Assembly: GCA_027451505.1 (NCBI GenBank)
Contig: DAIDJD010000013.1
Coordinates: 1 to 54,629, forward strand
Origin: a candidate division FCPU426 bacterium
GTDB taxonomy: Bacteria; Oederibacteriota; JAJYGY01; DAIDJD01
DNA: 54,629 bases
Reading direction: 5' to 3'
The first letter of the stretch is position 1, and every line of letters begins with the position of its first letter. Below, in pieces: positions 1 through 39,633 of this stretch. The position numbers and the translations under genes were made by a program. The notes beneath the pieces were generated by a model. That model saw only the letters and a program-made list of their open reading frames with translations, did no database searches and was not told where the DNA came from.

Positions 1-1
1 C

Positions 2-139
2 CCAGCCGGCGCCATGATGGCCGAGGCCGAGGTCTGGAAGCTCGTCTGGGCCGTCTCCACCGAACAGGAGATGCGCTGGGCCAACCGCCGCATCAAGGGC
101 GCCGCCAAGGAGGCCCACCGGCTCAAGGTCGCGGCCTAG
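2..139 (+). CDS. 3' end of an unidentified CDS entering from the left edge (46 codons, TAG at 137-139)
   Basis: The frame is open from the window edge and has GC-rich third positions (...AEAEVWKLVWAVSTEQEMRWANRRIKGAAKEAHRLKVAA*). It is too short for the ORF track and I recognise no family. Confidence 0.3.
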   Translation, partial: PAGAMMAEAEVWKLVWAVSTEQEMRWANRRIKGAAKEAHRLKVAA

Positions 140-369
140 CCCGCCGCCGACATCCCTACGCCAGGGAAATTACACCCAAGGTCGTTGCATGACCCCGTGG
201 ACTGTCGGTACTTGTCGAGCGAGAGCGCCTCACAAACAAGATTCTCAGTATAATCGGCGACTGGGTTGTTCGAGCTCGATGTGATGTTCTTGTATGCCAA
301 TTGGAACATCACATCGCTGTAGAGCTTGAGTATCTCGGTGACCGAGAGTTCTTCCAAATTGAACTTCAT
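136..369 (-). pseudogene. Possible truncated gene remnant (77-aa ORF)
   Basis: ATG at 369, in lower-GC DNA. The first ~55 aa (MKFNLEELSVTEILKLYSDVM...NNPVADYTENLVCEAL) look like the N-terminus of a longer protein; this rests on unverified memory of an NNPVxDYxE motif. The last ~20 aa run into the GC-rich end of the neighbouring CDS and look like read-through. Confidence 0.3.
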
Positions 370-383
370 GTCTTCCTCAGCAC

Positions 384-632
384 TCAGGCCGCTTTGACCA
401 CATAGTCGGCGATCACGTCCCGCACCATGCGGTTGTATTTGACGCCCTTCTTCTTGGCGACCTTCTTCACGAGATCCACCAGGTCCTTGGACATGCGGAT
501 GGTCATGGTGGCGTCCTTAGGGGCGAACTTGAAGTGGCTCTTCCGCCACTTGAGCGTGCTCAGGTAGCCCGTCAGGTCTTCTGCCAGCGGGTCGTCTTCT
601 ATCTCTTTGGCGGTTGGCTTAGCCTTTTTCAT
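384..632 (-). CDS. brnA: BrnA-type antitoxin (ribbon-helix-helix/CopG-like)
   Basis: 82 aa; ATG at 632, TGA at 384. Overlaps the upstream toxin gene by 14 nt. The C-terminal part (MTIRMSKDLVDLVKKVAKKKGVKYNRMVRDVIADYV) is typical of RHH antitoxins paired with BrnT. Confidence 0.8.
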   Translation of the reverse strand: MKKAKPTAKEIEDDPLAEDLTGYLSTLKWRKSHFKFAPKDATMTIRMSKDLVDLVKKVAKKKGVKYNRMVRDVIADYVVKAA

Positions 633-918
633 AGTCTCGAACCTCCTTGGCGTGCATGTATCTGGCGCTGATAGGGCGGATGAGGCTGCGCCCCTCCTTG
701 GTCCGAAGGGTGAAGGAGACCACCATCCAGCGGCCTTCTTGGGTCACACCCACGGCCAGTTGTCGCTTCTCATGCCTGGAATGCTTGGGATCCTCGGCAA
801 GGAACGGTTTGCCTTCAAAGAAGGCCTCTATTGTCTCCCTGCTGACGCCATGCTTGGCCAGGTTCTTGGTGGCGTTGCCCTGGTCCCAGTCGAAGTCGTC
901 ATAGTCGAGTTCAGCCAT
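619..918 (-). CDS. brnT: BrnT-type ribonuclease toxin (DUF497 family)
   Basis: 99 aa; ATG at 918. N-terminal FDWDQGNATKNLAKHGVSRETIEAFF matches the F-x-WD-x-x-K-x-x-x-N-x-x-KHGV signature of BrnT. Toxin-first gene order, overlapping brnA. Confidence 0.85.
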   Translation of the reverse strand: MAELDYDDFDWDQGNATKNLAKHGVSRETIEAFFEGKPFLAEDPKHSRHEKRQLAVGVTQEGRWMVVSFTLRTKEGRSLIRPISARYMHAKEVRDYEKG

Positions 919-941
919 GTGTTAAGTCTAAGTGGGGGATA

Positions 942-966
942 ATGTAATAACAACGTGTTATTACAT
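942..966. promoter_or_regulatory. Perfect 11-bp inverted repeat (ATGTAATAACA-acg-TGTTATTACAT), candidate brnTA operator
   Basis: Read directly from the sequence. It begins 24 nt upstream of the brnT ATG, in an AT-rich intergenic stretch. RHH antitoxins typically autoregulate through palindromic operators. Confidence 0.5.
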
Positions 967-1101
967 CCTTTTGGGCGAATCCCAGAATGCCATTTTGTCC
1001 ACCGCCCCAGGATTTCCTTGGACACTCCGTAAGGCCATTCTTTCCCGACGTAAGTATCCGATGAAGAGAAATCCGCGTGGGCGAAGTCGGGGCCTGCGGA
1101 C

Positions 1102-3152: not shown

Positions 3153-3242
3153 AGGGCGTCCGCCCCGGCTTCCGTTTTTCTCGGCGATATGGTCGAATGG
3201 CCCGGATGCGGGAACCTCCACGATGACGGTCCGGGAGCGGCC

Positions 3243-3581
3243 ATGATGACGGCACCTATAAAAGCACCCCAAAAAACGCCCGTGAAGGCGCCGACGACGA
3301 CGCCCACGGCCCCGACGACGGTGCTGGAGGGCATTGAGATGTCCTCCCTGACCGAGCGCTGTTGTGTCGAGGCCCTGAACAACGACGTCTCCACGGTGCA
3401 GGACGTGATCCGGGTTTTTGTCCGCGTCTGCGGATACGACTTGGCCAAGGCCAAGGCCTATACCTTGAAGATCCACGTGGAGGGCAGAGCGGTCTGCTTC
3501 TGGGGGAGCAAGGAGCGCTGCCAACGGGTCATCCGGGCCTTCCGCGTCATCGGGGTGGACTGCAACCTTCTGGAGAACTGA
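3243..3581 (+). CDS. clpS: ClpS-like ATP-dependent Clp protease adaptor
   Basis: The C-terminal 80 aa (VEALNNDVSTVQDVIRVFVRVCGYDLAKAKAYTLKIHVEGRAVCFWGSKERCQRVIRAF) follow the ClpS core pattern. The start is uncertain: ATG 3243 was chosen, and the track start is 3189. Confidence 0.7.
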   Translation: MMTAPIKAPQKTPVKAPTTTPTAPTTVLEGIEMSSLTERCCVEALNNDVSTVQDVIRVFVRVCGYDLAKAKAYTLKIHVEGRAVCFWGSKERCQRVIRAFRVIGVDCNLLEN

Positions 3582-3630
3582 CCCGCCGAGGGGTGGGGGG
3601 CCTCCGAAGTCTGCTCCGTCCGGGCACGGG

Positions 3631-3660
3631 AAAAAAAAGGCCCGGCCGAGAGGCCGGGCC
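3631..3660 (-). terminator. Rho-independent terminator of the repeat-protein gene
   Basis: On the minus strand, GGCCCGGCC-tctc-GGCCGGGCC is followed directly by T8. It lies 28 nt after the stop at 3688. Confidence 0.75.
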
Positions 3661-3687
3661 TTGGGGGAACGCGTCGGTTCTTGGCGC

Positions 3688-4290
3688 TTACGGGGTGGCC
3701 GTGGCCACCGGGGTGGGCACCGCGGTGGGAGCTGCGGTGACCGTGGGCATCGGGGTCGGCGCGGTGGTCGGCGCCGCCGTCGGGGCCGGGGTTTCGTCCC
3801 CGTCGCTGTCCGCGTCCACCGGGGTCGGCCAGGGGGTTCCGTTCCAGGTCGGCCAGGGGGTCAGGACAGGCGTCGGGAAGGGCGTGCCATTCCAGGTCGG
3901 CCAGGGCGTGATCGCCGGGGTCGGGAAGGGCGTGCCGTTCCAGGTCGGCCAGGGCGTGATCGCCGGGGTCGGCTCCGGGGTCTCGGCGCTTTCGTTCTCA
4001 GTCGGCCACGGGGTGATCGCCGGGGTCGGGAAGGGCGTGCCATTCCAGGTCGGCCAAGGCGTGACCGCCGGGGTCGGGAAGGGCGTGCCGTTCCAGGTCG
4101 GCCAAGGCGTGACCGCCGGGGTCGGCCAGGGTGTGCCGTTCCAGGTGGGGAACGGCGTCACGGTGACGTTGGGGTGCGGAACAAACCGATATCCGAAATA
4201 GTCGTACGCGTGGGACAGCGAAGGCATCAGGGCCACGATCAGCCCCGCTAAGCCCAGCCATCGCACGACTTTCTTGGTGCCTTCGCGCAT
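3688..4290 (-). CDS. Secreted Trp/Pro/Thr-rich tandem-repeat protein (unknown family)
   Basis: ATG at 4290 with GGAGG 5 nt upstream. Signal-peptide-like N-terminus [28 protein letters not shown]. Seven tandem units of [15 protein letters not shown](I/V), then a Pro/Thr/Ala tail. It has its own sigma-54 promoter and terminator. Confidence 0.75.
3814..4158 (-). repeat. Coding tandem repeat: 48-nt unit x6 plus one degenerate 57-nt unit
   Basis: Near-identical units (ggccagggcgtgatcgccggggtcgggaagggcgtgccRttccaggtc) are visible directly. They encode the 16-aa protein repeat. Confidence 0.9.
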
Positions 4291-4340
4291 GGCGACCTCC
4301 ATTTTGAAACTTATGGGTGCGTTCCCCGGCCAACCGTAAG

Positions 4341-4356
4341 TGCAAGCGCCGTGCCA
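4341..4356 (-). promoter_or_regulatory. Sigma-54 (-24/-12) promoter: TGGCAC-ggcgc-TTGCA
   Basis: The reverse complement of 4341-4356 is TGGCACGGCGCTTGCA, an exact match to TGGCAC-N5-TTGCW. It lies ~50 nt upstream of ATG 4290. An NtrC-family activator with a GAFTGA motif is encoded next door. Confidence 0.7.
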
Positions 4357-4477
4357 CGCTTTGACCCATATGCACCAAGGGTTTTCCAAGAAAATTTCCC
4401 GCGACGCGTACAAATTTTTGAACCGAATGCGCTAATTTTCGAACTTCCCGTGTATTGGAATCACGCTTCCTTCCGGA

Positions 4478-5131
4478 TCAGCGCGCCGCCAAAATCTCGG
4501 CGCGCAGGGTCCAGACCCGCGCCGCCAGACTCGGATCGGTGGAGGCCGTTTCCAGGGGCTTGAGGGCCTCCAGGGCGGCGCGCCGCTTGTGGGATCCGTG
4601 CCAAAAGGCCCAGGCCAGGGCGTAACGGGCCTCGGCCAAGCGCGGCTCAAGGCTCAGGACGCTCTCGAACTCGACGGCGGCGGCCCCCGGCTGGCTGTGG
4701 GCGAGGTACACCAGGCCCAGGTAGTAATGCACCAGGGGCAGGCTGCGGTCGAGGCGGTTGGCCAGCCGCAGTTCGTTGAACGCGCTTCCCAGCTGGCCTT
4801 GGTCATAGTCCAGGCGGCCGAGGTAGTAATGGGTCGCGGGCATGGCCGGGGCCTGGGCCGCGGCGGCCTCCAGAAGGGCGCGCGCCTCGGCCAGACGGCC
4901 GAGATGGTACAGGCATTCCCCCAGGTAAAAGCGGGCCTCCAGGCTCTTGGGATCGGCCGCCAAAGCGGCGCGCAGGCCGGCCTCGGCGGCGTTGAGGCGC
5001 CCCGCCCTGAGATCGCGCACGCCGCGCAGGAAGTCGGCGCGGCCCGCGGTCTGGGCCCCGCAAAGGGGGGCGGCCAGGCAGGCGCCCAGCAGCCCCAGGA
5101 TCAGCCAACGTTCAACCGGCCTCGGAACCAT
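4478..5131 (-). CDS. Secreted TPR-repeat protein
   Basis: 217 aa; ATG at 5131. Signal-like WLILGLLGACLAAPLCGAQT. Repeated TPR-like A-x-x-x-Y/F-x-L-G helices. Overlaps the response-regulator gene by 20 nt. Confidence 0.8.
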   Translation of the reverse strand: MVPRPVERWLILGLLGACLAAPLCGAQTAGRADFLRGVRDLRAGRLNAAEAGLRAALAADPKSLEARFYLGECLYHLGRLAEARALLEAAAAQAPAMPATHYYLGRLDYDQGQLGSAFNELRLANRLDRSLPLVHYYLGLVYLAHSQPGAAAVEFESVLSLEPRLAEARYALAWAFWHGSHKRRAALEALKPLETASTDPSLAARVWTLRAEILAAR

Positions 5132-6461
5132 CGCACAGGCCCTCCAACGCGTATTTCTGGATCTTGTACTGGATGCCCGAGCGCGACAGCCCGAGCCTAC
5201 GGGCCGCCCGCGAACGGACTCCGCCGCTCTCCACGAGGGCCCGGCGGATGAGTTCGGATTCGGTGCGCTCCATGGCCTCGGCCAGGGTGAGGCCGCCCAC
5301 GGAAACGGCCCCGGCGGCGGCGTCGGGCGGCCGGGGCGCGAGCGGCTCCCCCCGGTTGAAGACCACGGCCTGCTCCACCAAATTCTGGAGCTCGCGCACG
5401 TTCCCCGGCCAGTGGTACCGCTCCAGCCCGGGCAGGCACTCCGGGTCCAGGCCCGGCCAGGGCTTTCCCTGGGCCGCGCAGAACTGGCGGCCGAAGTGCT
5501 CGGCCAGAAGGCGCACGTCGCCGCGGCGCTCGCGCAGGGGCGGCAGATGGATCCCCACGACGCCGAGGCGGTAGTAGAGGTCCCCGCGGAAGGCCCCCTG
5601 CGCGGCCAGGGCGGCCAGGTCTCGGTTGGTCGCCGCCACCAGGCGGAAGTCGGCCCGCAGCGTGCGCACGCCGCCCACGCGCTCGAATTCGCGCTCCTGA
5701 AGCACGCGCAGGAGCTTCACCTGCACCTCGGGGGGGATCTCGCCCACCTCATCGAGGAAGAGCACCCCTCCCCGGGCCATTTCAAAGCGCCCGGCGCGGG
5801 CCGCCACCGCCCCGGTGAAGGCGCCCTTTTCGTGCCCGAACAGTTCGCTCTCGAGCACGCCCGGGGCCAGGGCCGCGCAATGGACGCTCACGAAGGGCCC
5901 ATCGCGCCGGGGTCCCAGCCGGTGGAGGGCGCGGGCGGCCAGCTCCTTGCCGGTCCCGGACTCGCCGGTCAGCAGCACCGTGCTGGGGGCGGGCGCGGCC
6001 TGGCGCAGGGCCTCCAGGACGGAGGCCAGGGCCGGGCTGGAGCCCAGAAGGGCCCGCGGGCCCAGGTCCTCCTCGAGGCTGCGGCGCTTGCCCTCCTGGG
6101 CCCTCCGCCCCAGGGCCTTGCCCAGCTTCAGTTCGAGCTCCTCCATCAGGAAGGGCTTCACCAGGAAGTCCTCGGCGCCCAGGCGCATGGCGCGCACCGC
6201 CTCCTCCACCCCGCCGTGGGCCGTCACCACGAACACGGGCAGGTCCGGGTCGTTGCGGTGGATCTCCTCGAGCAGGCCGAGGCCGTCGAGTCCCGGCATG
6301 CGCAGGTCGGTCACCACCGCGTCGGCTCCGCGCCGGCCGAGCCATTCCAGGGCGCCCCGCCCGTCCGCGGCCTCGGCCACCTCGTGCCCGGCGGCGCCGA
6401 GCCAACTGCTCAGGGTCGCCCGCATTCCGGGGTCGTCGTCCACCACCAAAAGGGTGCTCAC
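5112..6461 (-). CDS. Sigma-54-dependent response regulator (NtrC family: REC + AAA+ + Fis-type HTH)
   Basis: GTG at 6461 with AGGAGG 5 nt upstream. REC domain (LLVVDDDPGMR...DLRMPGLDG), Walker A GESGTGKE, GAFTGA motif (GHEKGAFTGA), and a C-terminal HTH (AARRLGLSRSGIQYKIQKY). Confidence 0.92.
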   Translation of the reverse strand: MSTLLVVDDDPGMRATLSSWLGAAGHEVAEAADGRGALEWLGRRGADAVVTDLRMPGLDGLGLLEEIHRNDPDLPVFVVTAHGGVEEAVRAMRLGAEDFLVKPFLMEELELKLGKALGRRAQEGKRRSLEEDLGPRALLGSSPALASVLEALRQAAPAPSTVLLTGESGTGKELAARALHRLGPRRDGPFVSVHCAALAPGVLESELFGHEKGAFTGAVAARAGRFEMARGGVLFLDEVGEIPPEVQVKLLRVLQEREFERVGGVRTLRADFRLVAATNRDLAALAAQGAFRGDLYYRLGVVGIHLPPLRERRGDVRLLAEHFGRQFCAAQGKPWPGLDPECLPGLERYHWPGNVRELQNLVEQAVVFNRGEPLAPRPPDAAAGAVSVGGLTLAEAMERTESELIRRALVESGGVRSRAARRLGLSRSGIQYKIQKYALEGLCDGSEAG

Positions 6462-6470
6462 GCGTCCTCC

Positions 6471-7937
6471 TTAGGTCCCGCCGCGGGGCAGCCGCATGCG
6501 GAAAAGGGCGCCCCCTCCGGGGGCCGCGTCCGCCTCGAGGTCCCCGCCGTGGGCCTGGGCCGCCCGGCGCGCCAGCGCCAAGCCCAACCCGGTGCCCGCG
6601 GCCTTGGTGGTGAAGAAGGGCTCGAAGAGGCGGCCCCGGGCCTCCGGGGCCACGCCCGGGCCCTGGTCGGCGACCTCCAGGAGCGCGTCGCCGCCCTCGT
6701 GGCGCAGCCTGAGTGAGACGCGCCCGCCCGCGGGCATGGCCTGCAGCGCGTTCAGGCCCAGGTTGAGCAGGGCGCCCTCCAGAAGGGCCGGGTCGCAGCG
6801 CAGGATCCGCGGTTCCTCCGACAACGCTTCGACTTCGTGCGCCGACCCGGCGGTTTGGCGCAGGTCCTGCGCCAGGCGCTCGAGCAGGGCCCCCAAGTCG
6901 GCCTCGCGCAGGTCGGGTTTGGGCACCCGGCCGAGTTCGAGGAAGCGGCTGACCATGCGCTCCAGGCGCGCGACCTGGGAACGGATGTGGCCCAGGGGCC
7001 CCTCCGCTTCCGGTCGGGGCCCCAGCGCGCGCTCCAGCAGGTCGGCCTGCCCCCGGATCACGGTGAGGGGATTGCGCACCTCGTGGGCGATGGCCGAGGC
7101 CACCCGGCGCATCTCCTCGCTCCGGCTTTCGGCATGGTCCTTCTCCAGGCGCGCCTCCAGGTTGGCCAAGGTGAGGCTGCGCAGCGAGGCCGCCGCCGCG
7201 CTCAAGGCGCGGCTGAGTTCGTGGCCGCCGGGCCCGGGCCGGCCGGGCGGGGGCCCCCCGCCAAGGGCGCCTTCGAGCCAGCCCAGGGGCGAAAGAAGCC
7301 AGGCCGCCAGCCCCGCGCCCAGCACTAGGCACAGACCCAGCCCCAGGGCCCCCGCGGCCAGGCTGGCCCTGCGGAAGCCCGCCAGGACCTGCAGGTACGC
7401 CGGGTCCACAAGCATCTGCAGGATGAGGCCCCGGCCCAGCGGGGTGAACACCGACTGGTCGCGGGTGCCGAAGCTGGTCGGCCGCGGCGGATGCACCAAG
7501 GTCCAGCCCGCGCGCAACCGGGCCCAGTCGTCCGGTCCCAGTTCCGGGGTGAGGAACCCCGGCACGCGGTCTCCGGTGGCGTCGATCAGCACCAGGCCGC
7601 GGGAGTCCAGCACGGCCAGATCCCGGGCCAGGCCGGCCGAACGCGAGCCGTCCAGCGCCGCCTCCAGGACGCGGTCGCGCGTCCCGGCGGGCCCGGGCGC
7701 CGTGGCCAGGGCCCCACCCAGGCGCGCGGCCAGGAGCCGCGCCTCCACGGCGAGTTGCCGGTCCATCGCCGCGCGCAGCCCCCGGGCCACGCGGAGGTAC
7801 ACCCAAACGCCGGCGCCCGCCGACAGAAGGGTCCACAGCCCGGCCAAGCCTATGGCCAACTGCCAGCGCAACGACAGCCACCAAGGCGCTCCGGCGCGGG
7901 CCCGGCGGGCCGTCCCAACGGCGCTCAGCGTCCCCAT
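6471..7937 (-). CDS. Sensor histidine kinase (two TM segments, periplasmic domain, HisKA + HATPase_c)
   Basis: ATG at 7937 is preferred; it overlaps the upstream stop by 13 nt (the track start is 8006). H-box ASAIAHEVRNPL; G-boxes DQGPGV and GTGLGLA. Confidence 0.85.
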   Translation of the reverse strand: MGTLSAVGTARRARAGAPWWLSLRWQLAIGLAGLWTLLSAGAGVWVYLRVARGLRAAMDRQLAVEARLLAARLGGALATAPGPAGTRDRVLEAALDGSRSAGLARDLAVLDSRGLVLIDATGDRVPGFLTPELGPDDWARLRAGWTLVHPPRPTSFGTRDQSVFTPLGRGLILQMLVDPAYLQVLAGFRRASLAAGALGLGLCLVLGAGLAAWLLSPLGWLEGALGGGPPPGRPGPGGHELSRALSAAAASLRSLTLANLEARLEKDHAESRSEEMRRVASAIAHEVRNPLTVIRGQADLLERALGPRPEAEGPLGHIRSQVARLERMVSRFLELGRVPKPDLREADLGALLERLAQDLRQTAGSAHEVEALSEEPRILRCDPALLEGALLNLGLNALQAMPAGGRVSLRLRHEGGDALLEVADQGPGVAPEARGRLFEPFFTTKAAGTGLGLALARRAAQAHGGDLEADAAPGGGALFRMRLPRGGT

Positions 7938-9811
7938 CCTATCCCCGCGTACCCCAGCATGGTGGCGTTGCTGAAGGCCTGGATGTTGCTGGTGTCGGCG
8001 GCCCACTGGGCGCCGACGAACACGGAGAAGCCGCCCGGCAGCCCGCGGTCGAGTTCCAGGTCGGCGTAGCCCTGCTCGTCAAGGCGCCCGCCCGCGGGCA
8101 GGTTGGGCGGCGAGGCCGGCCACCAGAGGTAGGCCTGGGGGGTCCACACCCCGGTGAAGGACACGTAAAAGCCCTTGGGCAGCATCAGGCGCGCGTTGAT
8201 CGAGGCGAAGGCGTTGTCGTAGCCCCACATCGTGTCCCCGGGCCACACGGGCCGGGCCAGGCGGCCGCCCAGGATCAGTCCGAGCAGGTCGCCCCGACGC
8301 GACATCCAGGTGGCCCCCAGGGTGGGCAGAAGGCTGTTGTCGTCGTAGGGCGCGTAGGTGGGGAAGCGCTCGGCCAAGGCCTGGATCCCCAGGGAAAACG
8401 GCTGCATCCCCAGGACGCGGCCGTCGAGCTCGGTGCGCGCGGAGACGACTTCGTAGTTGGCGGGCGCGTTGTTCCAATGGATGAAGTTCTGGCGCACCCC
8501 GCCGTTGCCGTCCAGGAGGGCGCTCCAGCGCGGATTGAAGGTGTAGCGCACCAGGGCGTCCAGGCTGGAAAGGGGTTGCCCGACGTTGAGGGGCTGGCCC
8601 GGGTACTGGTAGGGAACGATGAACATGCCGTAGGACAAGGTCGCGGCCACGCGCTTGCCCAAGGCCAGTCCGTAGCTGAGGTTGAGTTCGTCCTGGCTTC
8701 CCAGGGAGCGGGTCCGCACAACGCCGGCGGCGGTGTCGCTCTGGTTCACCTGGGGCCCGGCCATGAGGCGCACCGAGCCGTGCAGGCCCATGCCGGCCTG
8801 GGCCGGTACCTGGCCCAGCTCGGACTGGGCCAGGAGGCCGAACCCTCCGGCCGGCCCCAGCGCCGCGAGCGAGGCCAGGGTGTCCCGGGCCGCGGCGGCC
8901 TGGCCGGTGCGCTGCTGGTATTTGGCCTTGAGGTAGAGCCCTCCGGGATGGCGTGGATCCAGGGCCAGGCAACGTTCCAGCGCCCGGAGCATGCCCGGCC
9001 CGTCTTTGAGGCGGTAGCGGGCCAGGGCCAGGCTATACCAGCAGTCCGGCGCCTCGGGCGAGACCGCGCAGGCCCCGCGGAAACAGGCCTCGGCCCGTTT
9101 GGCGTCCCCGCGCTTGAGCCAGGCGTTGCCCCAGGCGATGTCCCGGGCGGCCTCCGGTCCCGGCGTCTGGATCCCGGGCCGGGCCAGGACACGCGCCAGG
9201 GAGGCGTCCTGGGGATCCAGGGCGCGGGCCCGGGCCAGGGCCTTGCGCGCCTCCTGGTCGCGTCCCAGGCGCTCCAGGCAGATGGCTTCGCCCTTCCATC
9301 CCAGGGGGCTGCGCGGATCCTGCCGCACCGCGGCGCCGAAGGCGGCCAACGCATAGGTGACTTGGCCGGCCTGGAGGCCCTGCTCGCCCACGGCCAGGGC
9401 ATAGGGCTCCCCCAACCTGAGCAGCAGCGCGGCGCTGGCGTGGTCGCTGGGCGAACGCTCCAGCGCCGCCTCGGCCCAGCGCCGCGCGGAGCGGCGCCGG
9501 CCCAAGACAAAGGCGCACGCGGCCACCCCGTAGTAGGCGGCGCCTTCGCCGGGTTCGCATTGCGCGGCCAGGACAAAGGCCCGCATGGCTTGGACATAGG
9601 CGTGGCGCAGGTACCAGGCGCGCCCCTGGGCCAGGAAGTCTTGGGCGCAAGGCGTCGCGGCCCGCGCGCTGCCTGAGAACACCAAAACCACCAGCACCCA
9701 AAACCACAATCGTTTGTATTTTTTAAGATAAAGCTCGCGCGCGCTTCTGAACTCAAAATCCTTTAAAAAACGATTGTCTGTGGCCTGCGCACCGCTGGGA
9801 CTTCCTGGCAA
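7925..9811 (-). CDS. TPR-repeat protein with a predicted C-terminal outer-membrane beta-barrel
   Basis: The N-terminal ~300 aa hold multiple TPR-like helical pairs after a signal-like KKYKRLWFWVLVVLVFSGSARA. The C-terminal ~300 aa have an alternating-hydrophobic strand pattern rich in G/Y/W/N and end ...MLGYAGIGWGR. The start is uncertain: TTG at 9811 in the track, with no in-frame ATG before the signal peptide. Confidence 0.65.
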   Translation of the reverse strand: MPGSPSGAQATDNRFLKDFEFRSARELYLKKYKRLWFWVLVVLVFSGSARAATPCAQDFLAQGRAWYLRHAYVQAMRAFVLAAQCEPGEGAAYYGVAACAFVLGRRRSARRWAEAALERSPSDHASAALLLRLGEPYALAVGEQGLQAGQVTYALAAFGAAVRQDPRSPLGWKGEAICLERLGRDQEARKALARARALDPQDASLARVLARPGIQTPGPEAARDIAWGNAWLKRGDAKRAEACFRGACAVSPEAPDCWYSLALARYRLKDGPGMLRALERCLALDPRHPGGLYLKAKYQQRTGQAAAARDTLASLAALGPAGGFGLLAQSELGQVPAQAGMGLHGSVRLMAGPQVNQSDTAAGVVRTRSLGSQDELNLSYGLALGKRVAATLSYGMFIVPYQYPGQPLNVGQPLSSLDALVRYTFNPRWSALLDGNGGVRQNFIHWNNAPANYEVVSARTELDGRVLGMQPFSLGIQALAERFPTYAPYDDNSLLPTLGATWMSRRGDLLGLILGGRLARPVWPGDTMWGYDNAFASINARLMLPKGFYVSFTGVWTPQAYLWWPASPPNLPAGGRLDEQGYADLELDRGLPGGFSVFVGAQWAADTSNIQAFSNATMLGYAGIGWGR

Positions 9812-9992: not shown

Positions 9993-10373
9993 CTACCTCA
10001 AAAGTTTTTTCAACTCACGGGTGATGAGCTTGGGCAGCTTGGCTTTGAACGCGGCCACCGCATCCTTGGCGATGCGTCGGGCTTCGCGCTGCTTCACATA
10101 ACCCTTCAAAGGAACCGCGGAGGCCGAGACGCCTTTGGGGCGGCCGGATCCACGCTTCGCGGCACCCTCCTTCGTCGGCCGGGGTCCCTTGGGCCGTCCC
10201 GGCTTGTTCTTGGATCCCTTGGGCCGACCTGGCTTGTTCTTGGATCCCTTGGGCCGACCCGGCTTGTTCTTGGATCCCTTGGGCCGTCCCGGCCCGCGCT
10301 TGCCGCGGCCACGACGCGGGCGTTCGGCGCCGACTTCGTGCTTGGGAGTGATTTCCGTGGACATTTCCGCCAT
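9993..10373 (-). CDS. AT-hook repeat DNA-binding protein (HMGA-like GRPKGSKNK repeats)
   Basis: 126 aa; ATG at 10373 with AGGAG 6 nt upstream. Contains RGRGKRGPGRPKGSKNKPGRPKGSKNKPGRPKGSKNKPGRPKGPRP...GSGRPKG, which gives five GRP cores. Basic helical C-terminus. Confidence 0.75.
   Translation of the reverse strand: MAEMSTEITPKHEVGAERPRRGRGKRGPGRPKGSKNKPGRPKGSKNKPGRPKGSKNKPGRPKGPRPTKEGAAKRGSGRPKGVSASAVPLKGYVKQREARRIAKDAVAAFKAKLPKLITRELKKLLR
10186..10295 (-). repeat. Coding 30-nt tandem repeat (3 full copies plus a partial one)
   Basis: The unit cccttgggccgNccYggcttgttcttggat is visible directly. It encodes KPGRPKGSKN. Confidence 0.85.
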
Positions 10374-13954: not shown

Positions 13955-15885
13955 GCCCCGGACCCCGGTCCGAAGCCGCCGTTGAGGACGGGCCAGCGGC
14001 ACCAGGTGCGCGGATCGACGCTGTGGTCGTCCAGGTGCAGGGACACCGCCAGGCGCTCGCGCTTCCACTGGGAGCCCGACCACAGCGCGTAGAAGGAGCG
14101 CGTCCACTCCGCGAGGTCGTCCCCGGGTTCGCCGGGGAAGTCGCCGCGCAGGGCCTCCAGCGCGCCCTCGGGGGGCAGGCGCCGGACCACGGCGGAGCGC
14201 TCCAGCGCGTCGAGCACCGCGTAGGGCATCAGGTCGTCCTCGTCGGTCTGGCGGTCCTCCAGGGGCCGCAGCTCGGCGGTGGGAGCCTGGTCGTTGACCG
14301 CCTTGAGGGCCGGGACCGGCCCCAACTCCCGCGGACCCCGCTCCTCCATCCACCGCAGCCAGCCCCTGAGGAAGTCCTTGCCCACCCCGGCCACCGGGGC
14401 CAGGCCGCCGCTGGTGTCACCGTCCATGGAGGTGTACCCCGTGGCCGCCTCGCTGCGGTTGTTCGTCGCCAGCAGAAGCCGGCCCTCGGCGTTGGCCAGG
14501 GTCCACACCGCGGGGGACCGCACCCGGGCCTGGAGGTTCTGCAGCGTGAGGTCGTCCTCGGGCCAGCCCAAGGGCCGCCCCAGGACGCCTTCGGCCAGGC
14601 TCCGGTAGGCGTCGACGAGGTGTTGCACCTCCACGGCGGCGTGGGCCGAGCCCACGGCGCGGGCCACCCCCTCGGCCGCGGACCGGGTCGTGGCCGAGGA
14701 GTGCGCCGTGGCTTGGTAGAGGGTGCGCAGCAGCACGGGCATGGCCGCGGCTTGGCCGCCGGCGGCCGCGATCCCGGGAACGTCCGGAAGCCGCGCGGCG
14801 AAGCCCTCGAAGCCGAGCTCGTCGACGGCGAAAGCGGCCATCAGCCGGACCAGCAGCGCGCAGGCGGCCGAGTCCGCGCCCCCGGAAAGGCTCAGGCAGA
14901 ACCCGCGGGCCCGGCTTTTGCGGAGGTAGTCGAAGATCCCCAGGGCCCCGGCCCGCGCGAAGTCCTCGCGCGGATCGGCAGCCTCGTGGGCGGCCGGGTC
15001 GCCCAGGGACGGCGGGGGGGGGGAGGCCGGCAGGGCCGGCGGGAAGGGGTCCCGCACCAGACCCGCACCCTCCACCGGGGCGGCGCGCCGGACTTCGACG
15101 TCGGCGCAGACCAGCCCCACGTCGCGGTAGCTGAAGCGCGCTCCGCGGGCCGCCACCGCCCCGTCCGGGTGGAGGAGGAAGGCGCCCCCGTCGTAGACCG
15201 CGCGCCCGCTTTCGTTGCCCATGAGGTTGGCGTAGGCGTAGGCCAAGCCGTGGTCCGCGGCCGCCCCGACCCCCAGGCCCAGACGGACCGCCTGCTTTCC
15301 CGGGGCGTAGTGGCTCGCCGCCGGGCCGAAGATGAGGTTGGCCCCGCGCCGGGCCAGGCGCGGGGCGGGCCTTTCCGGCCCGCCCCAGGCGTCCTCGCAG
15401 ATCTCGAAACCCAGCACGGCCCCGCCGCAGGCGAAGAGCAGGTCCCCCACGGGGACCTCGCGCCCCAGAACCTCCGCGCGCTCCACCCGGCCCGGCTCCC
15501 AGGCCCGGAACCAGCGCGGCTCGTAGTGGATGCCGTCCCGGGCCAGGCGCTGCTTGGGCACCAGGCCCAAAAGGCGGCCGTCCGCGCACACCGCGACCGT
15601 GTTGTAGAGCGCCCCCCCCAGCTCGAAGGGCAGCCCAAAGGCCGTGCACAGCCCCTGGGTGCGCCCCACCAGGACGCCCAGTTCGGCCAGGGCCCTCTCC
15701 CGCAGGAACGGGGCGAGGAAGAGGTCTTCGCAGCCGTAACCCGTGACGGCCAGTTCGGGAAGGCAGAGGTGGGAGACGCCCGCGGCCCGGGCGAGGTCGA
15801 GGGCCCGGGCGAGGTTCCCCCGGTTGGCGGCCCAGGCCAGCGGCGTCTGGTTCACGAACGCCGCGCCCAAGCGCACGGTGCTCAC
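13951..15885 (-). CDS. nadE: Glutamine-dependent NAD+ synthetase (CN-hydrolase domain + NAD synthetase domain)
   Basis: The GTG at 15885 overlaps the upstream stop (GTGA); 644 aa. The N-terminal nitrilase-like domain has LCLPELAVTGY and FEICEDAW. The C-terminal domain has the PP-loop LSLSGGADSA. The 1370-aa track ORF is an artefactual upstream extension. Confidence 0.9.
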   Translation of the reverse strand: MSTVRLGAAFVNQTPLAWAANRGNLARALDLARAAGVSHLCLPELAVTGYGCEDLFLAPFLRERALAELGVLVGRTQGLCTAFGLPFELGGALYNTVAVCADGRLLGLVPKQRLARDGIHYEPRWFRAWEPGRVERAEVLGREVPVGDLLFACGGAVLGFEICEDAWGGPERPAPRLARRGANLIFGPAASHYAPGKQAVRLGLGVGAAADHGLAYAYANLMGNESGRAVYDGGAFLLHPDGAVAARGARFSYRDVGLVCADVEVRRAAPVEGAGLVRDPFPPALPASPPPPSLGDPAAHEAADPREDFARAGALGIFDYLRKSRARGFCLSLSGGADSAACALLVRLMAAFAVDELGFEGFAARLPDVPGIAAAGGQAAAMPVLLRTLYQATAHSSATTRSAAEGVARAVGSAHAAVEVQHLVDAYRSLAEGVLGRPLGWPEDDLTLQNLQARVRSPAVWTLANAEGRLLLATNNRSEAATGYTSMDGDTSGGLAPVAGVGKDFLRGWLRWMEERGPRELGPVPALKAVNDQAPTAELRPLEDRQTDEDDLMPYAVLDALERSAVVRRLPPEGALEALRGDFPGEPGDDLAEWTRSFYALWSGSQWKRERLAVSLHLDDHSVDPRTWCRWPVLNGGFGPGSGA

Positions 15886-17324
15886 CCCAGCCCCACCAGG
15901 GAAAGGGAGGAGATGGTGTCCCCCATGCCCACCAGCGTCACCGGCTTGTCGATGAGGATGGTGGGCACCGCCACCACATGGAAGTCCGCGCAGGAGCCCA
16001 TGCCGGTCTCGGCCAGGGCGTCCAGCCCGTGGGCCGCGGCCAGGTGCGCGGCCAGGGCCTTCAACTCGGACAGGCTGTGCTCCGACACTTCGCGCCCGTG
16101 CGCCCACAGGAGGTTTTCGGCGCGGTCCAGGCTTCCGGTGCCGGCCTTGGCCGCCGCCACCGTGGCCGCGAAGGCCATGCCGTCGCGGTTGGCGCGGGGC
16201 TCGAACACCGGGCCCCGGGCGGCCTCGGCGGGCCGGATCAGGGTGATGTAAAGGCCGAACATGTGCAGTTGGACGCGCTTGAGCCCGAGCGCCTGGTAGA
16301 CCTTGAGGAGCCCCTTGAACAGGTTCACCGCGCCCAGGGACTGGCACTCGCGCGCCAGGGACTGCTCGCCCAGGACCTCGAGGATGCCGATGAGCTCCTG
16401 CTCGTTGCAGCCCACGCTGTCGGCGCGGGGGGCCAGGAAGCGGGCCAGCTCCTCGCGGATCTTCAGGTCCTGGGTGCTGGCGAACTCGAAATGGACCACC
16501 GCGCCGGGGTGGGCCTCCTTCCACCTTGAGACCCGGGCCCACGAGTCCGCGATGCGCGCCAGCCCGGAGCCGGGGGCGCCGCCCGTTAGCGGCTCGGTGA
16601 GCATCTGATAGCCGCTGAGCAGGATGAAGTCGAGGGGGTGCCCCGGCCGGGAAAGCGCCGCGTCGAAGGCGTCGTCCAGTTCCAGGCGGAAGTTGAGGGG
16701 GTCGTAGGTGGCGATGAAGCGGTTGCTCTTGGGGCAGGTGAGTTTCAGGCCGCCCAGCTCCAGCTCCGCGCCCTTGTCGAACTCGAGGATCCAATGGATG
16801 AGCGGGCGGTCGCCGGGCCTGTCCACGCCCCGGGCCGGGACCAGGGCCCCCGCGGAGTCCGTGCTGACCAAGCTGTCGTGGTCCAGGAAGAGGCCGGCCT
16901 GCTGGGCGGGCAGGCTGGCGCAGTGCACATAGACCCTGCGGGCGCCGGCCACGGCCAGGACATTGGCGATGATGCCCCCCTGGCCGCCCATCTGCAGGCG
17001 GTCGTAGCCCAGGCGTGCGGCCATCCAATCGAAAGTGGACTCGCGGGCCACCAGCCATTCCTGGGCCACGCCCTTGGAGAAGCACTCCACGAAGCCGCGC
17101 AGCAGGTCCACGGGTTCGTCGATGCGCCGGGCCCCCTTGTTGAGGACCTGCCATTCGTCCGCGCCCAGGTCGCCCATCCATTCCACCACCCGCCCCGGGG
17201 CCACCTTGAGCACGGCGTCGATGTTGGCGTTGAAGACGCTGGCCACCCCGGAGACGCGCCGGAAGCGCTCCAGGTGTCCGGGCACGTGGGCGTAATGTTC
17301 CTTCCAGGCGCGCTTGAGATCCAT
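15882..17324 (-). CDS. ADP-dependent sugar kinase (ADP-dependent glucokinase/phosphofructokinase family)
   Basis: 480 aa; ATG at 17324. Block-by-block match to Pyrococcus ADP-GK as I remember it: FNANIDAV, RLQMGGQGGIIANVL, VHFEFASTQDLKIREE...VGCNEQELIGILEVLGE, RVQLHMFGLYITL, and the C-terminal VGMGDTISSLSLVG. Confidence 0.85.
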   Translation of the reverse strand: MDLKRAWKEHYAHVPGHLERFRRVSGVASVFNANIDAVLKVAPGRVVEWMGDLGADEWQVLNKGARRIDEPVDLLRGFVECFSKGVAQEWLVARESTFDWMAARLGYDRLQMGGQGGIIANVLAVAGARRVYVHCASLPAQQAGLFLDHDSLVSTDSAGALVPARGVDRPGDRPLIHWILEFDKGAELELGGLKLTCPKSNRFIATYDPLNFRLELDDAFDAALSRPGHPLDFILLSGYQMLTEPLTGGAPGSGLARIADSWARVSRWKEAHPGAVVHFEFASTQDLKIREELARFLAPRADSVGCNEQELIGILEVLGEQSLARECQSLGAVNLFKGLLKVYQALGLKRVQLHMFGLYITLIRPAEAARGPVFEPRANRDGMAFAATVAAAKAGTGSLDRAENLLWAHGREVSEHSLSELKALAAHLAAAHGLDALAETGMGSCADFHVVAVPTILIDKPVTLVGMGDTISSLSLVGLG

Positions 17325-36393: not shown

Positions 36394-38406
36394 TCAGCGG
36401 ATGCGCGCCACGAAGGCGCCGCCGAGGTCGAGGCGTTGCGTCCGCGGCAGCGCGCGGAGCGCCGCGACCCACGCCATAAAGCGGGCCTCGGCTTGGGCGT
36501 CGCCGACGGGCCAGTAGGGTTGCTCGGATCCGGTTCGCAACTGGCCCATCCAGGGTCCGAAGTTGAAATACACGAAATCATACCCCTTCGCCCGCACCCT
36601 GGCATCCACCTCCTGGGGCGAGCGCGCCCGTCCCACCCACTCGGCGAGGGGATGCCGGTCGTAGACGCTGGCCGCCAGGCAATCCGGGGGCAGGTACGCC
36701 GTGCGTTCGTCCCCCAGGACCAGGACCCCGGCCCCTTCGGGTTTCTGCGCCAGGATCCAGGCCCCGACGGCGGCCTGGGGCACCCCCATGCGCCCGAGGT
36801 AAGCCTCCGGCGCCTCCAAGCCCAGGGCCACGGGCAGGGGATCGAAATCCTTCACCGCGATGGCCAAGGTCTGGGCCGCGGTGAACAGCAGGCCGGCCAC
36901 CACGAGCCCCTGCCAAAGGCGCGCCCATCCGCGGGAGGCGGCCCTGGTTTCGGCTTCCGAAACCCCATGCGCCGCCAAAAGCGCGGCCGCGGGAACCAGG
37001 CAGACGCCGTAACGCAGGACATGGGGACCGAGAAGCCAGCCCAGGCATCCCAGCCCAAGGTAGGCCAGGATCCAACGCAAGGGTCGGTCCAGCCGCCCCG
37101 TGAGGCAGGCCGGCGCCAGGGCCAACAGGAGCACCCCCAAGATGCCGTCCGCGCCGAGGCTGCCCGCGTCGAAAAACGCGGCCCAGGGGAGGCGCACCCA
37201 AGCCCACAACCCGCGCCCGCCGAAGCCGCCCACGTGCCGGAAGTAGGAGGCCGGCCCCCCGTCGAAGAACGTCAGCCCGAACAGGCGCAGGGGGAACGGA
37301 TAAAAGGGCTGCCCCTTGAGCGCCAGGCCCTGGGCCATCCAGGGGACCAAGGGCACCAGGAAAAGGCCGACCGCCGTGAACAGCAGGCCGGGACGGCGCC
37401 AGGACCGTTCCCGCCAGGCCAAGGTCCCCAGCAGCGCCAGCAACGCGGCGGCGTGGATGAGCGCCACGGGCTTGCACGCCACCGCGGCGCCGGCCAGCAG
37501 GGCGCTGAGCAGGATCCAGGAGTCCTGGGTCCGGCGGACCGGGTCCACCAACCCCAGCAGGAAGGCGTCCAGGGAGGCGAAGGCGAAGAACACGGACCAG
37601 GCGTCGGGGGAGAAGACCCCGAAGCTGAGGGCGAGGAGGGGCTGGGTCAGGGCCAGAGCCGGCGCCATCCAGATGCGTCGTTCCTGGAAGAGCCGCGCCG
37701 AGGCATCCACGAGCAGCAGGCCCAAGGCCCCATAAAGGGCCAGGTCCAGCAGCCCGGCGGCCTGGGCCGAGACCCTGGGGGAGCCGTCCACGGCGAGGGC
37801 CCAGGCCCACACCGGCGTGGGCAGGGAGGGCAGCCAGGTGAAAAGGACATGGTCCTGGGGCCTCAGCCAACCGGAAGCGGCCGCGTGCTGGGCCTGGGCC
37901 AGGTGGTAGACCAGCGCATCGAAGAATTTCGGGGGGGCCAGGCACATCGCCGCCACCGGAAGCGCGGCCAGGGCCAGGGCCAGGACGGTGGCCACCTCGA
38001 GGCTCGAGCCGGACCACGGGCGCTTGGAGCGCAGGCTGCGGCGCAGCGTCTCGCCCAGGGACTCGGCGTGGCCCCAGCACACCAGGCAGATGACGCCCAA
38101 CAGGGCCCGGCACAGCCACGGATAGAGGGCCCCGGCCGCGCCGATGGCCGAACCCAGCAGCGACAGCGCCAACAAACCCAGCGCCAGGCTGAGGACTGCC
38201 TCCTCCACGAGGGAACCGTGGAACAGCCGGAACCGGCGCAGGGCCAGGCGCCCCAGAAGCAGGGCCGTGAGCAGCACGCCCCCGGCGGAGGCGGCGGCGC
38301 CCGCCAACGCCGCGGCGCCGCCCAAGGGTACGGGATAGCGCCAAGCCTCCACGGCCAGGAGGCCCGCCAACCAGGCCAGCAGGATCAGGAATTTGAGCCG
38401 CCGCAT
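36394..38406 (-). CDS. Large polytopic membrane protein, GT-C-like, with a C-terminal soluble domain
   Basis: 670 aa; at least 12 predicted hydrophobic segments. Early-loop motif PPKFFDALVYHL. The C-terminal ~130 aa are soluble. The family assignment is tentative. Confidence 0.6.
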   Translation of the reverse strand: MRRLKFLILLAWLAGLLAVEAWRYPVPLGGAAALAGAAASAGGVLLTALLLGRLALRRFRLFHGSLVEEAVLSLALGLLALSLLGSAIGAAGALYPWLCRALLGVICLVCWGHAESLGETLRRSLRSKRPWSGSSLEVATVLALALAALPVAAMCLAPPKFFDALVYHLAQAQHAAASGWLRPQDHVLFTWLPSLPTPVWAWALAVDGSPRVSAQAAGLLDLALYGALGLLLVDASARLFQERRIWMAPALALTQPLLALSFGVFSPDAWSVFFAFASLDAFLLGLVDPVRRTQDSWILLSALLAGAAVACKPVALIHAAALLALLGTLAWRERSWRRPGLLFTAVGLFLVPLVPWMAQGLALKGQPFYPFPLRLFGLTFFDGGPASYFRHVGGFGGRGLWAWVRLPWAAFFDAGSLGADGILGVLLLALAPACLTGRLDRPLRWILAYLGLGCLGWLLGPHVLRYGVCLVPAAALLAAHGVSEAETRAASRGWARLWQGLVVAGLLFTAAQTLAIAVKDFDPLPVALGLEAPEAYLGRMGVPQAAVGAWILAQKPEGAGVLVLGDERTAYLPPDCLAASVYDRHPLAEWVGRARSPQEVDARVRAKGYDFVYFNFGPWMGQLRTGSEQPYWPVGDAQAEARFMAWVAALRALPRTQRLDLGGAFVARIR

Positions 38407-38418
38407 CGGGCCCCCGTT

Positions 38419-39633
38419 CTAGCCGCCGGCCCGGGCCGCGCGGACGTTGAGGACTTTGAGCCGGCGCCATTGGCCCGCCGACCAAGCCCACCATGCGAGA
38501 TTGGCCGCGGCCCACGCGAACATGAGGCCCGGGATCGGCCTGGGTGGGGCCCAGGCCGCGGAACCGGCCAGCACACCGGGCAGGACCAGCGCGTAGAAGC
38601 CGGCGGCCAGCGCCAGGGCCGGGACGCTCAACCGCAGGCACAGGCCCGGCGACCAAGCCAGGGCCAGGGCCGGCGCCCACAGCAGGTATTGCGGGGAAAG
38701 CCCGGGCGCCAGGAGCGCCAGGGTCAGCCCCGCCCAGGGGAGCGCCGCCGCCAGGCGCAGGTCGCGGGGGTGGGACACGGCCCAGGCGAAAGCCGCCGCG
38801 ATCAGCGCCAACGCCGCGTCCCGGTAGCCCGCGTCGGCGGCGCGCCACAAAGCCGGGTCCACCCTCAAGGCGAAGCAGGCGGCCCGCAGGGCCCCGGAGG
38901 GACCCAGGGCGTTGGCCCCGGTGTAGGCTAGGCGCTCCCACACCGGACGAAACCCGTCCGCGGCGATCCAGGGCAAAGGCAGCACCGCGGGCAGCGCCAG
39001 GGTCTTGGCTGCGAACCGCAGGCGGTCCCGCGGGGCCGGAAAGACGCCCATGAAGGCGGGCAGCAGGAGCGCGGGCCAAGTCTTGAGGGCCACCGCCAGG
39101 CCCAGGCACAGCGCCGCCCTCGACTCGCCGCGAGGATGGGGCGAATACTCCAGGAGCCAGGCCGCGGCCAGGACCAGGGCCAGGACCAGGGAGTCGAATT
39201 GCCCGTGGCCGGCGCCCACGATCCAGGCCAGGGGGTTGAGGACCCACACGGCGCCGGCGGCGAGCCCGGCGCGCCGGGGGTCGCCCATCGGCGTGGGGCC
39301 GGGAAGGCCCGCCCGGCGCGCCGCGAACAGATAGGCCAGGCAGGCCACGGCCGAATCCCCGGCCACCGCGGGAAGGCGGAACCAGACGCCCGGATCGCCC
39401 CCCCACCGGGAGGCCAGCCGGCCCAGGAGACGCACCAGGGCCCACCACGCCGGGAGGTAGGGATAGCGGCCCGCCAGGGCGGGCGAGACGTAGAGCCCGG
39501 CGGCGGGACAGGCCGCCACGCGGGCGTAGCTTTCCAGGTCGAACGGCGCGCCCCGGCTCAGGACCAACAACGGAAGGCGGACGCAGGCCGAGGCCAGGGC
39601 CAGCAGCGCGAGGTCGCGCGCCTTGGGACTCAC
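38419..39633 (-). CDS. Polytopic membrane glycosyltransferase-like protein (DUF2029/GT87-like)
   Basis: The GTG at 39633 overlaps the upstream TGA (GTGA). 404 aa, multi-TM, with an early acidic loop motif GAPFDLESYARV. Tentative. Confidence 0.6.
   Translation of the reverse strand: MSPKARDLALLALASACVRLPLLVLSRGAPFDLESYARVAACPAAGLYVSPALAGRYPYLPAWWALVRLLGRLASRWGGDPGVWFRLPAVAGDSAVACLAYLFAARRAGLPGPTPMGDPRRAGLAAGAVWVLNPLAWIVGAGHGQFDSLVLALVLAAAWLLEYSPHPRGESRAALCLGLAVALKTWPALLLPAFMGVFPAPRDRLRFAAKTLALPAVLPLPWIAADGFRPVWERLAYTGANALGPSGALRAACFALRVDPALWRAADAGYRDAALALIAAAFAWAVSHPRDLRLAAALPWAGLTLALLAPGLSPQYLLWAPALALAWSPGLCLRLSVPALALAAGFYALVLPGVLAGSAAWAPPRPIPGLMFAWAAANLAWWAWSAGQWRRLKVLNVRAARAGG

Follow-up and report, generated by a model that had tools for sequence, protein, structure and literature searches.

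The contig DAIDJD010000013.1 (assembly GCA_027451505.1) of a candidate division FCPU426 bacterium, whose 54,629 nt are referred to below as the window, carries on its minus strand an open reading frame (ORF; 3688..4290) for an apparently secreted protein composed largely of tandem units of 16 amino acids (aa). This locus raises the question of whether the ORF is a gene at all and, if it is, what controls it and what its product does. We found that the ORF is a real gene, located behind a sigma-54 promoter and directly after an operon for a sensor kinase, a sigma-54 activator and two tetratricopeptide repeat (TPR) proteins. On balance, and with moderate confidence, we read its product as a non-globular repeat protein, rich in Pro, Thr and aromatic residues, that depends on sigma-54, is controlled by the kinase and the activator, is exported by Sec and belongs to the envelope or cell surface. 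What is new is the sigma-54 control together with a conserved cassette whose Pro-rich cargo is hypervariable.

The minus-strand ORF is a gene for a secreted repeat protein

The ORF list and its translation give a coding sequence at 3688..4290 of the minus strand, as for all elements of the gene named below, with the ATG at 4290, the stop codon at 3690..3688 and a product of 200 aa. Residues 1–28 (4207..4290) read as a Sec-type signal peptide having a basic n-region, a hydrophobic core at residues 8–26 and no lipobox Cys, and the AxA rule predicts cleavage after S-H-A. The translated mature protein starts with an aromatic N-terminal segment of 16 aa (4159..4206), which is not kept in the orthologue from the related locus L126 described below. 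Then follows an array of seven units ending in (F/W)PTPxx (3814..4158), six of them 16 aa long and one a degenerate unit of 19 aa (4014..3958). The acidic patch DADSDGDE (3816..3793) and a Pro/Thr/Ala tail ending in ...VATATP (3792..3691) complete the translation. The mature protein has a mass of 18.5 kDa and contains 51% Pro+Thr, and its repeat region has zero Lys and zero Arg. In the hydropathy scan, the tail showed no anchor and the signal peptide was the sole hydrophobic segment. As the protein also contains no Cys, it has no LPXTG, PEP-CTERM or transmembrane anchor.

An earlier interpretation of this DNA made from the letters alone (the sequence-only reading) had described the signal-like N-terminus, the seven units, the acidic patch, the tail and the missing anchor in the same way. 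Its motif counts were reproduced by our recount, which gave six N-G-T, one N-V-T and one N-E-S, as well as five W-P-T-W motifs starting at residues 63, 79, 114, 130 and 146. At the DNA level, Tandem Repeats Finder described the array with a period of 48 nt, 6.6 copies and a score of 370; the array is therefore not a product of chance. The 48-nt units had been called almost identical. This holds for the central units W2–W4, the only ones to reach 46/48, but the pairwise identity over the whole set spans 34–46/48 (71–96%).

Long ORFs are open on both strands of this region, and the gene product is not on record in the assemblies collection, as would be expected if there were no gene here, the array being a GC-rich DNA-repeat artefact or the opposite-strand frame 3362-4201 being the coding one. 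The minus frame, however, shows the properties of a gene. The GC content at third codon positions (GC3) is 0.886 in the repeat ORF versus 0.74 and 0.56 in two overlapping plus-strand frames, and the confident neighbouring genes have values of 0.81–0.92. In the minus-strand sequence, the Shine-Dalgarno element GGAGG (4296..4300) stands 5 nt before the ATG, and an intrinsic terminator with an 11-bp GC-rich stem followed by a T-run (3637..3662) lies 25 nt past the stop codon. The signal peptide and the promoter considered in the next section fit the same frame, in which the unit-to-unit differences of the array are mostly synonymous third-position changes.

The decisive evidence came from the codon comparison with the L126 orthologue. 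Over 152 aligned codons, 100 residues are identical, while the nucleotide differences are distributed 33/33/86 among codon positions 1/2/3; half of the conserved residues (50/100) use different codons. This third-position excess agrees with the minus frame, and the L126 repeat gene has its own gene call in the same orientation. Moreover, the proteins of five related loci are likewise missing from the collection, indicating that the absence is a property of the database. The minus-strand ORF 4290..3688 is thus a real gene, rather than the frame 3362-4201, and the view that there is no gene in this position is extremely improbable.

A sigma-54 promoter and conserved boxes lie upstream of the gene

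The minus-strand sequence TGGCACggcgcTTGCA at 4341..4356, with its −24 GG and −12 GC, reads as a sigma-54 promoter ending 50 nt before the ATG. In the direction of transcription (4356..4341) it has the perfect sigma-54 form TGGCAC-N5-TTGCA, and the exact pattern TGGCAC-N5-TTGCW is present in one copy in the 54.6-kb window, where 0.04 would be expected. The same promoter was found past the small TPR gene in seven related loci (L119, L121, L122, L125, L126, L127 and L128). The repeat gene thus has the −24/−12 element of a sigma-54-dependent gene, with the right spacing and position and with conservation in all seven of these loci.

Two further elements lie upstream on the same strand. The promoter-proximal box GAAAACCCTT (4377..4386) is conserved and is located 20 nt upstream of the −24 element. 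It was the best common 10-mer in eight upstream regions, having 12 total mismatches versus 16–19 in shuffles; five of the eight regions keep a distance of exactly 20 nt to the −24 element, and a sixth has 19 nt. The composite pattern of box and promoter has a single copy in the window, where chance would give 0.01, and five relatives also have one copy each, whereas the other loci of the 128 fetched in total have none. Farther upstream, the near-palindromic box GTTCAAAAATTTGTAC (4408..4423) was seen by eye in the promoter-aligned regions. A near-palindrome of this GTnCAAA...TTTGTAC type is kept across the relatives and also precedes a second sigma-54 promoter of L119. The sigma-54 activator encoded next to it probably binds at GTTCAAAAATTTGTAC. 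From the sigma-54 promoter to the intrinsic terminator, the repeat gene reads as a single-gene transcription unit.

The repeat gene follows a regulatory and TPR operon

Directly before the repeat gene lies an operon of the same strand. It starts with the gene for a large TPR protein, continues with those for a periplasm-sensing histidine kinase and an NtrC-type sigma-54 activator, and closes with that for a small TPR protein. The sensor histidine kinase (6471..8006, assigned by Pfam; likely start ATG at 7937) has two hydrophobic segments around a periplasmic loop of ~140 aa, for which no known family was found. The response regulator (5112..6461) contains the receiver, AAA+ sigma-54 interaction and Fis-type helix-turn-helix domains recognized by Pfam/NCBIfam and scores 218 bits against Pfam Sigma54_activat; its orthologues are 54–72% identical. 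The gene for the small exported TPR protein of 217 aa (4478..5131; Pfam TPR matches) overlaps the end of the regulator gene. This protein is kept in ten loci with a mean column identity of 52%, and it is 36–53% identical among the relatives.

The large exported TPR protein (7925..9811) also has Pfam TPR matches and ends in a C-terminal domain of ~290 aa (7925..8800), which is conserved in six loci according to the alignment of six orthologues. Amphipathic dyad segments number 16 in this domain, with partial overlaps that leave ~12 distinct ones, and Gly makes up 12.5% of it; the alternating pattern and the Gly/aromatic content are as in outer-membrane beta-barrels. The six orthologous domains matched no Pfam family at E up to 10, DUF560 included, and a profile search of PDB sequences gave no match. 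AlphaFold2, run without an alignment, placed helical repeats up to about residue 300, with a predicted local distance difference test score (pLDDT) of 66–96 over most blocks; in the C-terminal domain the pLDDT of ~22 is uninformative on the fold. The domain thus looks like an outer-membrane beta-barrel, recalling Slam, PgaA and BcsC, although this likeness is unconfirmed.

Relatives of the cassette carry hypervariable cargo

The repeat protein had been said to belong to no recognisable family, and indeed no match was obtained in Pfam (E up to 0.01) or NCBIfam (E up to 0.1), the Pfam PT repeat included. A word-indexed search of 5.8 billion proteins gave no match either. When phmmer was run exhaustively against 1.84 billion representative sequences, it returned generic Pro/Thr linkers only, with E down to 6.5e-22, and at least two W-P-x-W motifs were present in 0/117 of its matches. 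By exact look-up, the product was on record in neither its 200-aa nor its 204-aa form, and the small TPR protein was missing as well. A DNA scan for WPTWNGTP[WF]PTP in one genome per species yielded 0 matches, but this pattern is too strict, as it would miss L126-type units with Tyr or Arg. The 38 single WPTWNGTP matches seen in JGI metagenomes were rejected as chance, all of them lying outside repeat ORFs. A genome scan with the kinase detected generic kinase cores only (≤40% identity) and no repeat protein, a PDB sequence search with the repeat region produced nothing meaningful, and the repeat motif was not found in the published literature. No publication turned up for the sample accessions either, and a Geobacter study of ‘proline-rich proteins’ had no bearing on the window protein.

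Exact look-ups in a collection of 15 billion sequences also showed that it contains the neighbours of the window repeat protein and of five related Pro-rich proteins, but not these six proteins themselves. Low-complexity proteins of this kind are invisible to searches of that collection, so the null searches do not show the window protein to be an orphan. The missing family is therefore real as far as Pfam and NCBIfam are concerned and is partly a blind spot of the database.

As the sequence searches with the repeat protein had failed, relatives were sought through the regulator instead. For this, the contigs encoding the closest regulator relatives were read, with flanks reaching as far as 8 kb to either side of the regulator gene. 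In seven related metagenomic loci, the regulator, the small TPR gene and the sigma-54 promoter are retained and are followed by a gene with a signal peptide; the kinase and large TPR genes are present wherever the contig extends that far. The presence of the repeat protein thus correlates with the histidine kinase, response regulator and TPR genes across genomes, an association that the sequence-only reading had raised.

Pro-rich repeat genes for proteins of 185–282 aa occupy the position behind the promoter in five loci (L119, L121, L122, L125 and L126). The sole clear orthologue is the 185-aa cargo of L126, the locus with the 72% identical regulator; it has eight TPWPTW[ND]GTP[YW]PT[PR]xx units and shares 63% identity with the window protein along 147 aa. 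The L119 cargo consists of PTF[NS]GTP units, including TPFPTFNGTPLPTPEV, and those of L121, L122 and L125 have xGTP/poly-Pro repeats and a common C-terminal motif. L127 encodes a 489-aa low-complexity repeat protein with TPFPTP followed by 25 GKSGTAP units. Five related proteins have no Pfam match at E up to 0.1, and within the 1.67 Mb of fetched DNA, motif-rich ORFs were found at the syntenic position only. Behind the promoter, the cargo is always a signal-peptide protein that evolves very fast; most of its versions are Pro-rich tandem-repeat proteins.

At the repeat-gene position, L128 has a gene for a secreted serpin (2578-3960) behind the same sigma-54 promoter, and L123 has one for a pro-kumamolisin-type peptidase (4080-6905) with a Pro/Thr (PT) linker and a type IX secretion system sorting tail, which comes after a small protein occupying the small-TPR position. 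A second secreted Pro-rich protein is encoded upstream of the cassette in L119 (4088-4702), L121 (4149-4730), L120 (4438-4698), L122 (3-242) and L125 (~200-335). It has the conserved C-terminal motif PFPCLLC...WW[KR][KR][DN]..L.EL[ND]AAD, and its gene has its own sigma-54 promoter in L119 and L121, with an upstream box of the same type in L119. The window does not have this second gene; at the place it takes in L119 and L121, immediately before the large TPR gene, the window carries instead a basic ORF of 126 aa (9993..10373, minus strand) with four tandem KPGRPKGSKN units, an AT-hook-like GRP core and no Pfam match. Weak Pfam matches to TolC-type efflux (OEP) and outer-membrane beta-barrel families in the flanks of the relatives suggest a diderm envelope. 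For the pyruvate dehydrogenase E1 encoded in the window, the best named relative comes from candidate division FCPU426 (77% identity), and Planctomycetota follow as the next named group with ~65%; this assignment is based on one protein.

The conserved core of the repeat does not call for glycosylation

Across the 24 units of the three aromatic-type proteins (window, L126 and L119), the core is P-T-[W/F/Y]-[N/D/S]-G-T-P. At the Asn position of the presumed sequon, 16 units have N, 2 have D and 6 have S. The L119 protein has Phe in place of every Trp, giving F-x-x-F, and one L126 unit has W-x-x-Y. The DNA identity of the units is 84% within the window, 69% within L126 and 74% between both genomes. 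Since L126 keeps the peptide motif in spite of a unit identity of only 69%, long-term selection has acted on the peptide. The recent expansion or homogenisation proposed earlier thus suits the central window units, which look recently homogenised, but it does not account for the L126 units.

Asn, Asp and Ser before Gly favour tight turns, and a polyproline-II helix presents residues i and i+3 on one face. With this geometry, the two Trp residues of W-P-T-W would sit side by side. As a sequence pattern, the P-T-aromatic-[N/D/S]-G-T-P core fits a turn-plus-extended-helix scaffold better than it fits N- or C-glycosylation. The single-sequence AlphaFold2 model of the repeat protein, with a mean pLDDT of 46 and values of 32–39 in the repeat region, contained no fold and is uninformative in this respect.

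The sequence-only reading had raised the speculative idea that the protein is a glycoprotein substrate of GT-C-like enzymes encoded at 36.4–41.1 kb. The repeats would then serve as acceptors of N-linked (N-G-T), C-mannosyl (W-x-x-W) or O-mannosyl (Thr) glycans. The six N-G-T and five W-x-x-W motifs speak for this idea, as do two T-P-x-P motifs per unit, T-P-x-P being a favoured O-glycosylation context in eukaryotes. A weak similarity to GT87, which does not reach the cut-off (E 0.0018), was seen for the ORF 38419-39633, and GT1 and GT4 genes are present at 30.4–33.0 kb. The bacterial PglB sequon D/E-x-N-x-S/T, however, needs Asp or Glu at −2, and this residue is Thr in every unit. With the extended sequon absent and the Asn not conserved, the repeats do not have the features of a PglB-type N-glycoprotein.

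The W-x-x-W spacing is the same as in the C-mannosylation sequon of eukaryotic thrombospondin repeats (TSR), which is served by DPY19. Nevertheless, the window protein has five such motifs but no TSR domain and no Cys, the membrane ORFs at 36.4–41.1 kb include no Dpy19 match, and the Trp is not conserved in the relatives, being lost in L119. In a 2026 review (PMC12990085), as far as consulted, C-mannosylation is listed only in eukaryotes. In addition, the putative enzymes are 32 kb distant from the repeat gene, their matches are sub-threshold, and no Pfam-recognisable counterpart was present within the flanks fetched around the regulator gene in any relative, which leaves the proposed link to this locus without support. 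No conserved feature of the repeats requires glycosylation, and we consider a role as a glycan acceptor unlikely, although O-glycosylation of Thr in the Pro/Thr tracts would be possible. More generally, N-x-T and W-x-x-W motifs in Pro-rich repeats should not be read as glycosylation sites without comparative data.

The membrane genes in question (36394..41141, minus strand) are three polytopic ORFs with an AT skew of up to 0.5, one sub-threshold GT87 match and one weak LIC_10190 match. They are followed by a TPR gene (41138-42061), while the segment at 30.4–34.3 kb contains GT4/GT1 genes and a gene for an amine oxidase. This may be a surface-polysaccharide locus.

A probable envelope or surface protein

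The proposed course of events is as follows. A periplasmic or envelope signal would activate the kinase; the phosphorylated activator would then bind the upstream near-palindrome and open the sigma-54 promoter. The product would be exported by Sec and lose its signal peptide, and the mature protein would probably be non-globular, likely an extended polyproline-II-type chain with turns at [N/D/S]-Gly and with aromatic residues at i and i+3 along one face. In this form it may serve at the envelope or surface as a coat, matrix or adhesive, possibly crossing the outer membrane through the co-encoded protein with TPR and putative barrel domains.

Several points weigh against this interpretation. 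The coat, adhesive or matrix function is deduced from composition, and the polyproline-II conformation from general knowledge of Pro-rich sequences. The protein has no recognised outer-membrane translocation signal and could therefore stay in the periplasm; as the barrel in the large TPR protein is unconfirmed, the part of that protein as an exporter or anchor is hypothetical. Eight loci were examined, and the Trp-rich type is found in two of them only. The net charge is not conserved either, the isoelectric point being 4.05 for the window protein versus 9.6 for that of L126. Finally, the serpin in L128 and the kumamolisin-type peptidase in L123 indicate that the cassette does not dictate the function of its cargo.

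The arrangement of the cassette also recalls ZraP of the ZraSR system and CpxP of CpxAR, small exported proteins whose genes adjoin those of the two-component system that controls them (a sigma-54-dependent one in the case of Zra). By analogy, the repeat protein could be a periplasmic feedback or stress-buffer protein that acts back on the kinase or protects the envelope. In the window too, the target of a sigma-54 two-component system is a single small exported protein with its gene alongside; the regulator and the kinase score high against the NCBIfam AtoC/ZraR and AtoS/ZraS models, the two exported TPR proteins could mediate an interaction, and the serpin of L128 would suit a response to proteolytic stress. 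The window cargo, on the other hand, has no similarity to ZraP, CpxP or Spy, and it is a hypervariable repeat protein next to a conserved kinase and conserved TPR proteins, which is unexpected for a specific feedback partner. This explanation therefore appears unlikely to us.

Tandem identical units are also typical of pheromone polyproteins. The array could be a multi-copy precursor that is cut into peptides of ~16 aa, which the TPR proteins and the kinase would sense in an autoinduction loop. TPR receptors bind peptides in other systems, and the gene is controlled by the very system that would sense its product. Yet there are no recognisable processing sites between the units, whose region lacks Lys and Arg, and the cassette includes no peptidase or exporter gene. 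Moreover, the length and sequence of the units vary widely while the small TPR protein keeps its identity of 36–53%. A peptide signal is thus highly unlikely.

Three other candidate classes were considered and rejected: a pilin under PilS/PilR-type control, as there is no class III signal peptide; a lipoprotein, as there is no Cys; and the precursor of a ribosomally synthesized and post-translationally modified peptide, as a Sec signal is present and no modifying enzymes are encoded nearby.

Other features of the window

Convergent with the repeat gene lies a gene for a ClpS-like adaptor (3189..3581, plus strand), which has a Pro/Thr/Ala/Lys-rich N-terminal extension of ~55 aa (APIKAPQKTPVKAPTTTPTAPTT). 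The minus-strand gene at 15882..17324 encodes a member of the ADP-dependent glucokinase/phosphofructokinase family (PF04587, E 1.3e-67), a family mostly known from archaea. The first part of the window (1..1000) has a GC content of 0.57 versus ~0.72 elsewhere and contains a gene for a CopG-type antitoxin (384..632, minus strand); given both features, it may be a small mobile or toxin-antitoxin insert.

Comparison with known systems

The repeats themselves resemble the PT linkers of large secreted proteins, with which they share the T-P-x-P-T skeleton and the half-period of 8 residues (the TPxPTxxx octad, as in TPKPTVTE, TPLPTATG and TPTPTVNV). These linkers, however, stand inside multidomain proteins of 200–2900 aa and lack the Trp/Phe and N-G positions, whereas the window repeats make up the whole protein. 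The aromatic octads SPWPSPSA and TPYPTKKP also resemble the window repeats, a likeness that looks convergent.

The large TPR protein can be compared with Slam of type XI secretion (PMC8406197), in which a TPR domain precedes an outer-membrane barrel of the DUF560 family. In the window, an exported TPR domain is likewise followed by a barrel-like C-terminal domain, and the gene lies beside that of a candidate cargo. The N-terminal periplasmic TPR domain is supported by Pfam and AlphaFold2, but the 14-strand barrel of DUF560 (PF04575) was not recognized in the large TPR protein. The known Slam cargo have a C-terminal eight-stranded barrel, which the window repeat protein lacks.

A more speculative proposal, which at present we hold to be unlikely, sees in the locus a ‘sense-and-secrete’ envelope cassette of a candidate phylum, of a kind hitherto undescribed. 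An outer-membrane TPR-barrel protein unrelated in sequence to DUF560 would export or anchor the cargo, one or two hypervariable Pro-rich proteins forming rigid polyproline-II rods, while the kinase, the activator and the small TPR protein would control it. In Trp-rich rods of polyproline-II type, W at i and i+3 would be ~9 Å apart, and the resulting aromatic stripe could make the rods stick to surfaces of polysaccharide or polyphenol. Such a cargo would correspond, in an inducible bacterial form, to the proline-rich proteins that bind tannin or to planar carbohydrate-binding faces.

The closest described logic, by analogy, is that of the PrsK/PrsR/PrsT regulon of PEP-CTERM proteins. In this regulon (Haft et al. 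2006, PMC1569441), the regulators PrsK, PrsR and PrsT act on single-gene target operons, in which an activator box, a ~63-nt spacer, a sigma-54 motif and ~71 nt up to the start codon follow each other. The targets are fast-evolving secreted proteins that are Thr/Ser/Asn-rich and Cys-poor (PMC1569441). The window has the same set of regulators, with an exported TPR protein beside the histidine kinase and the NtrC-type sigma-54 activator, and its target combines a signal peptide with a single-gene operon behind an activator box and a sigma-54 motif. In both cases the targets evolve fast and are Thr- and Asn-rich and Cys-poor.

The window protein is nevertheless not a member of this regulon. It lacks the PEP-CTERM tail, its upstream box is not established as a PEP-CTERM box, and the known regulon belongs to Proteobacteria, whereas the window comes from an uncultured lineage. 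The scores against the NCBIfam models are below the cut-offs for the kinase (87.9 bits versus 300 for TIGR02916, PrsK), the regulator (376.3 versus 502.6 for TIGR02915, PrsR) and the TPR proteins (51.7 and 44.8 versus 312.2 for TIGR02917, PrsT). Among the part of the window ORFs that was scanned, there was no exosortase (EpsH/XrtA).

If our reading of the repeat protein as a controlled envelope or surface protein is true, a compact conserved cassette of an almost unstudied lineage controls a class of secreted proteins that evolves too fast for sequence searches and that at least one very large protein collection does not contain. A defined promoter, a candidate activator site and a cargo are now available to test it. 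In that case, the logic of the PEP-CTERM regulon would extend to proteins that do not carry its sorting tail.

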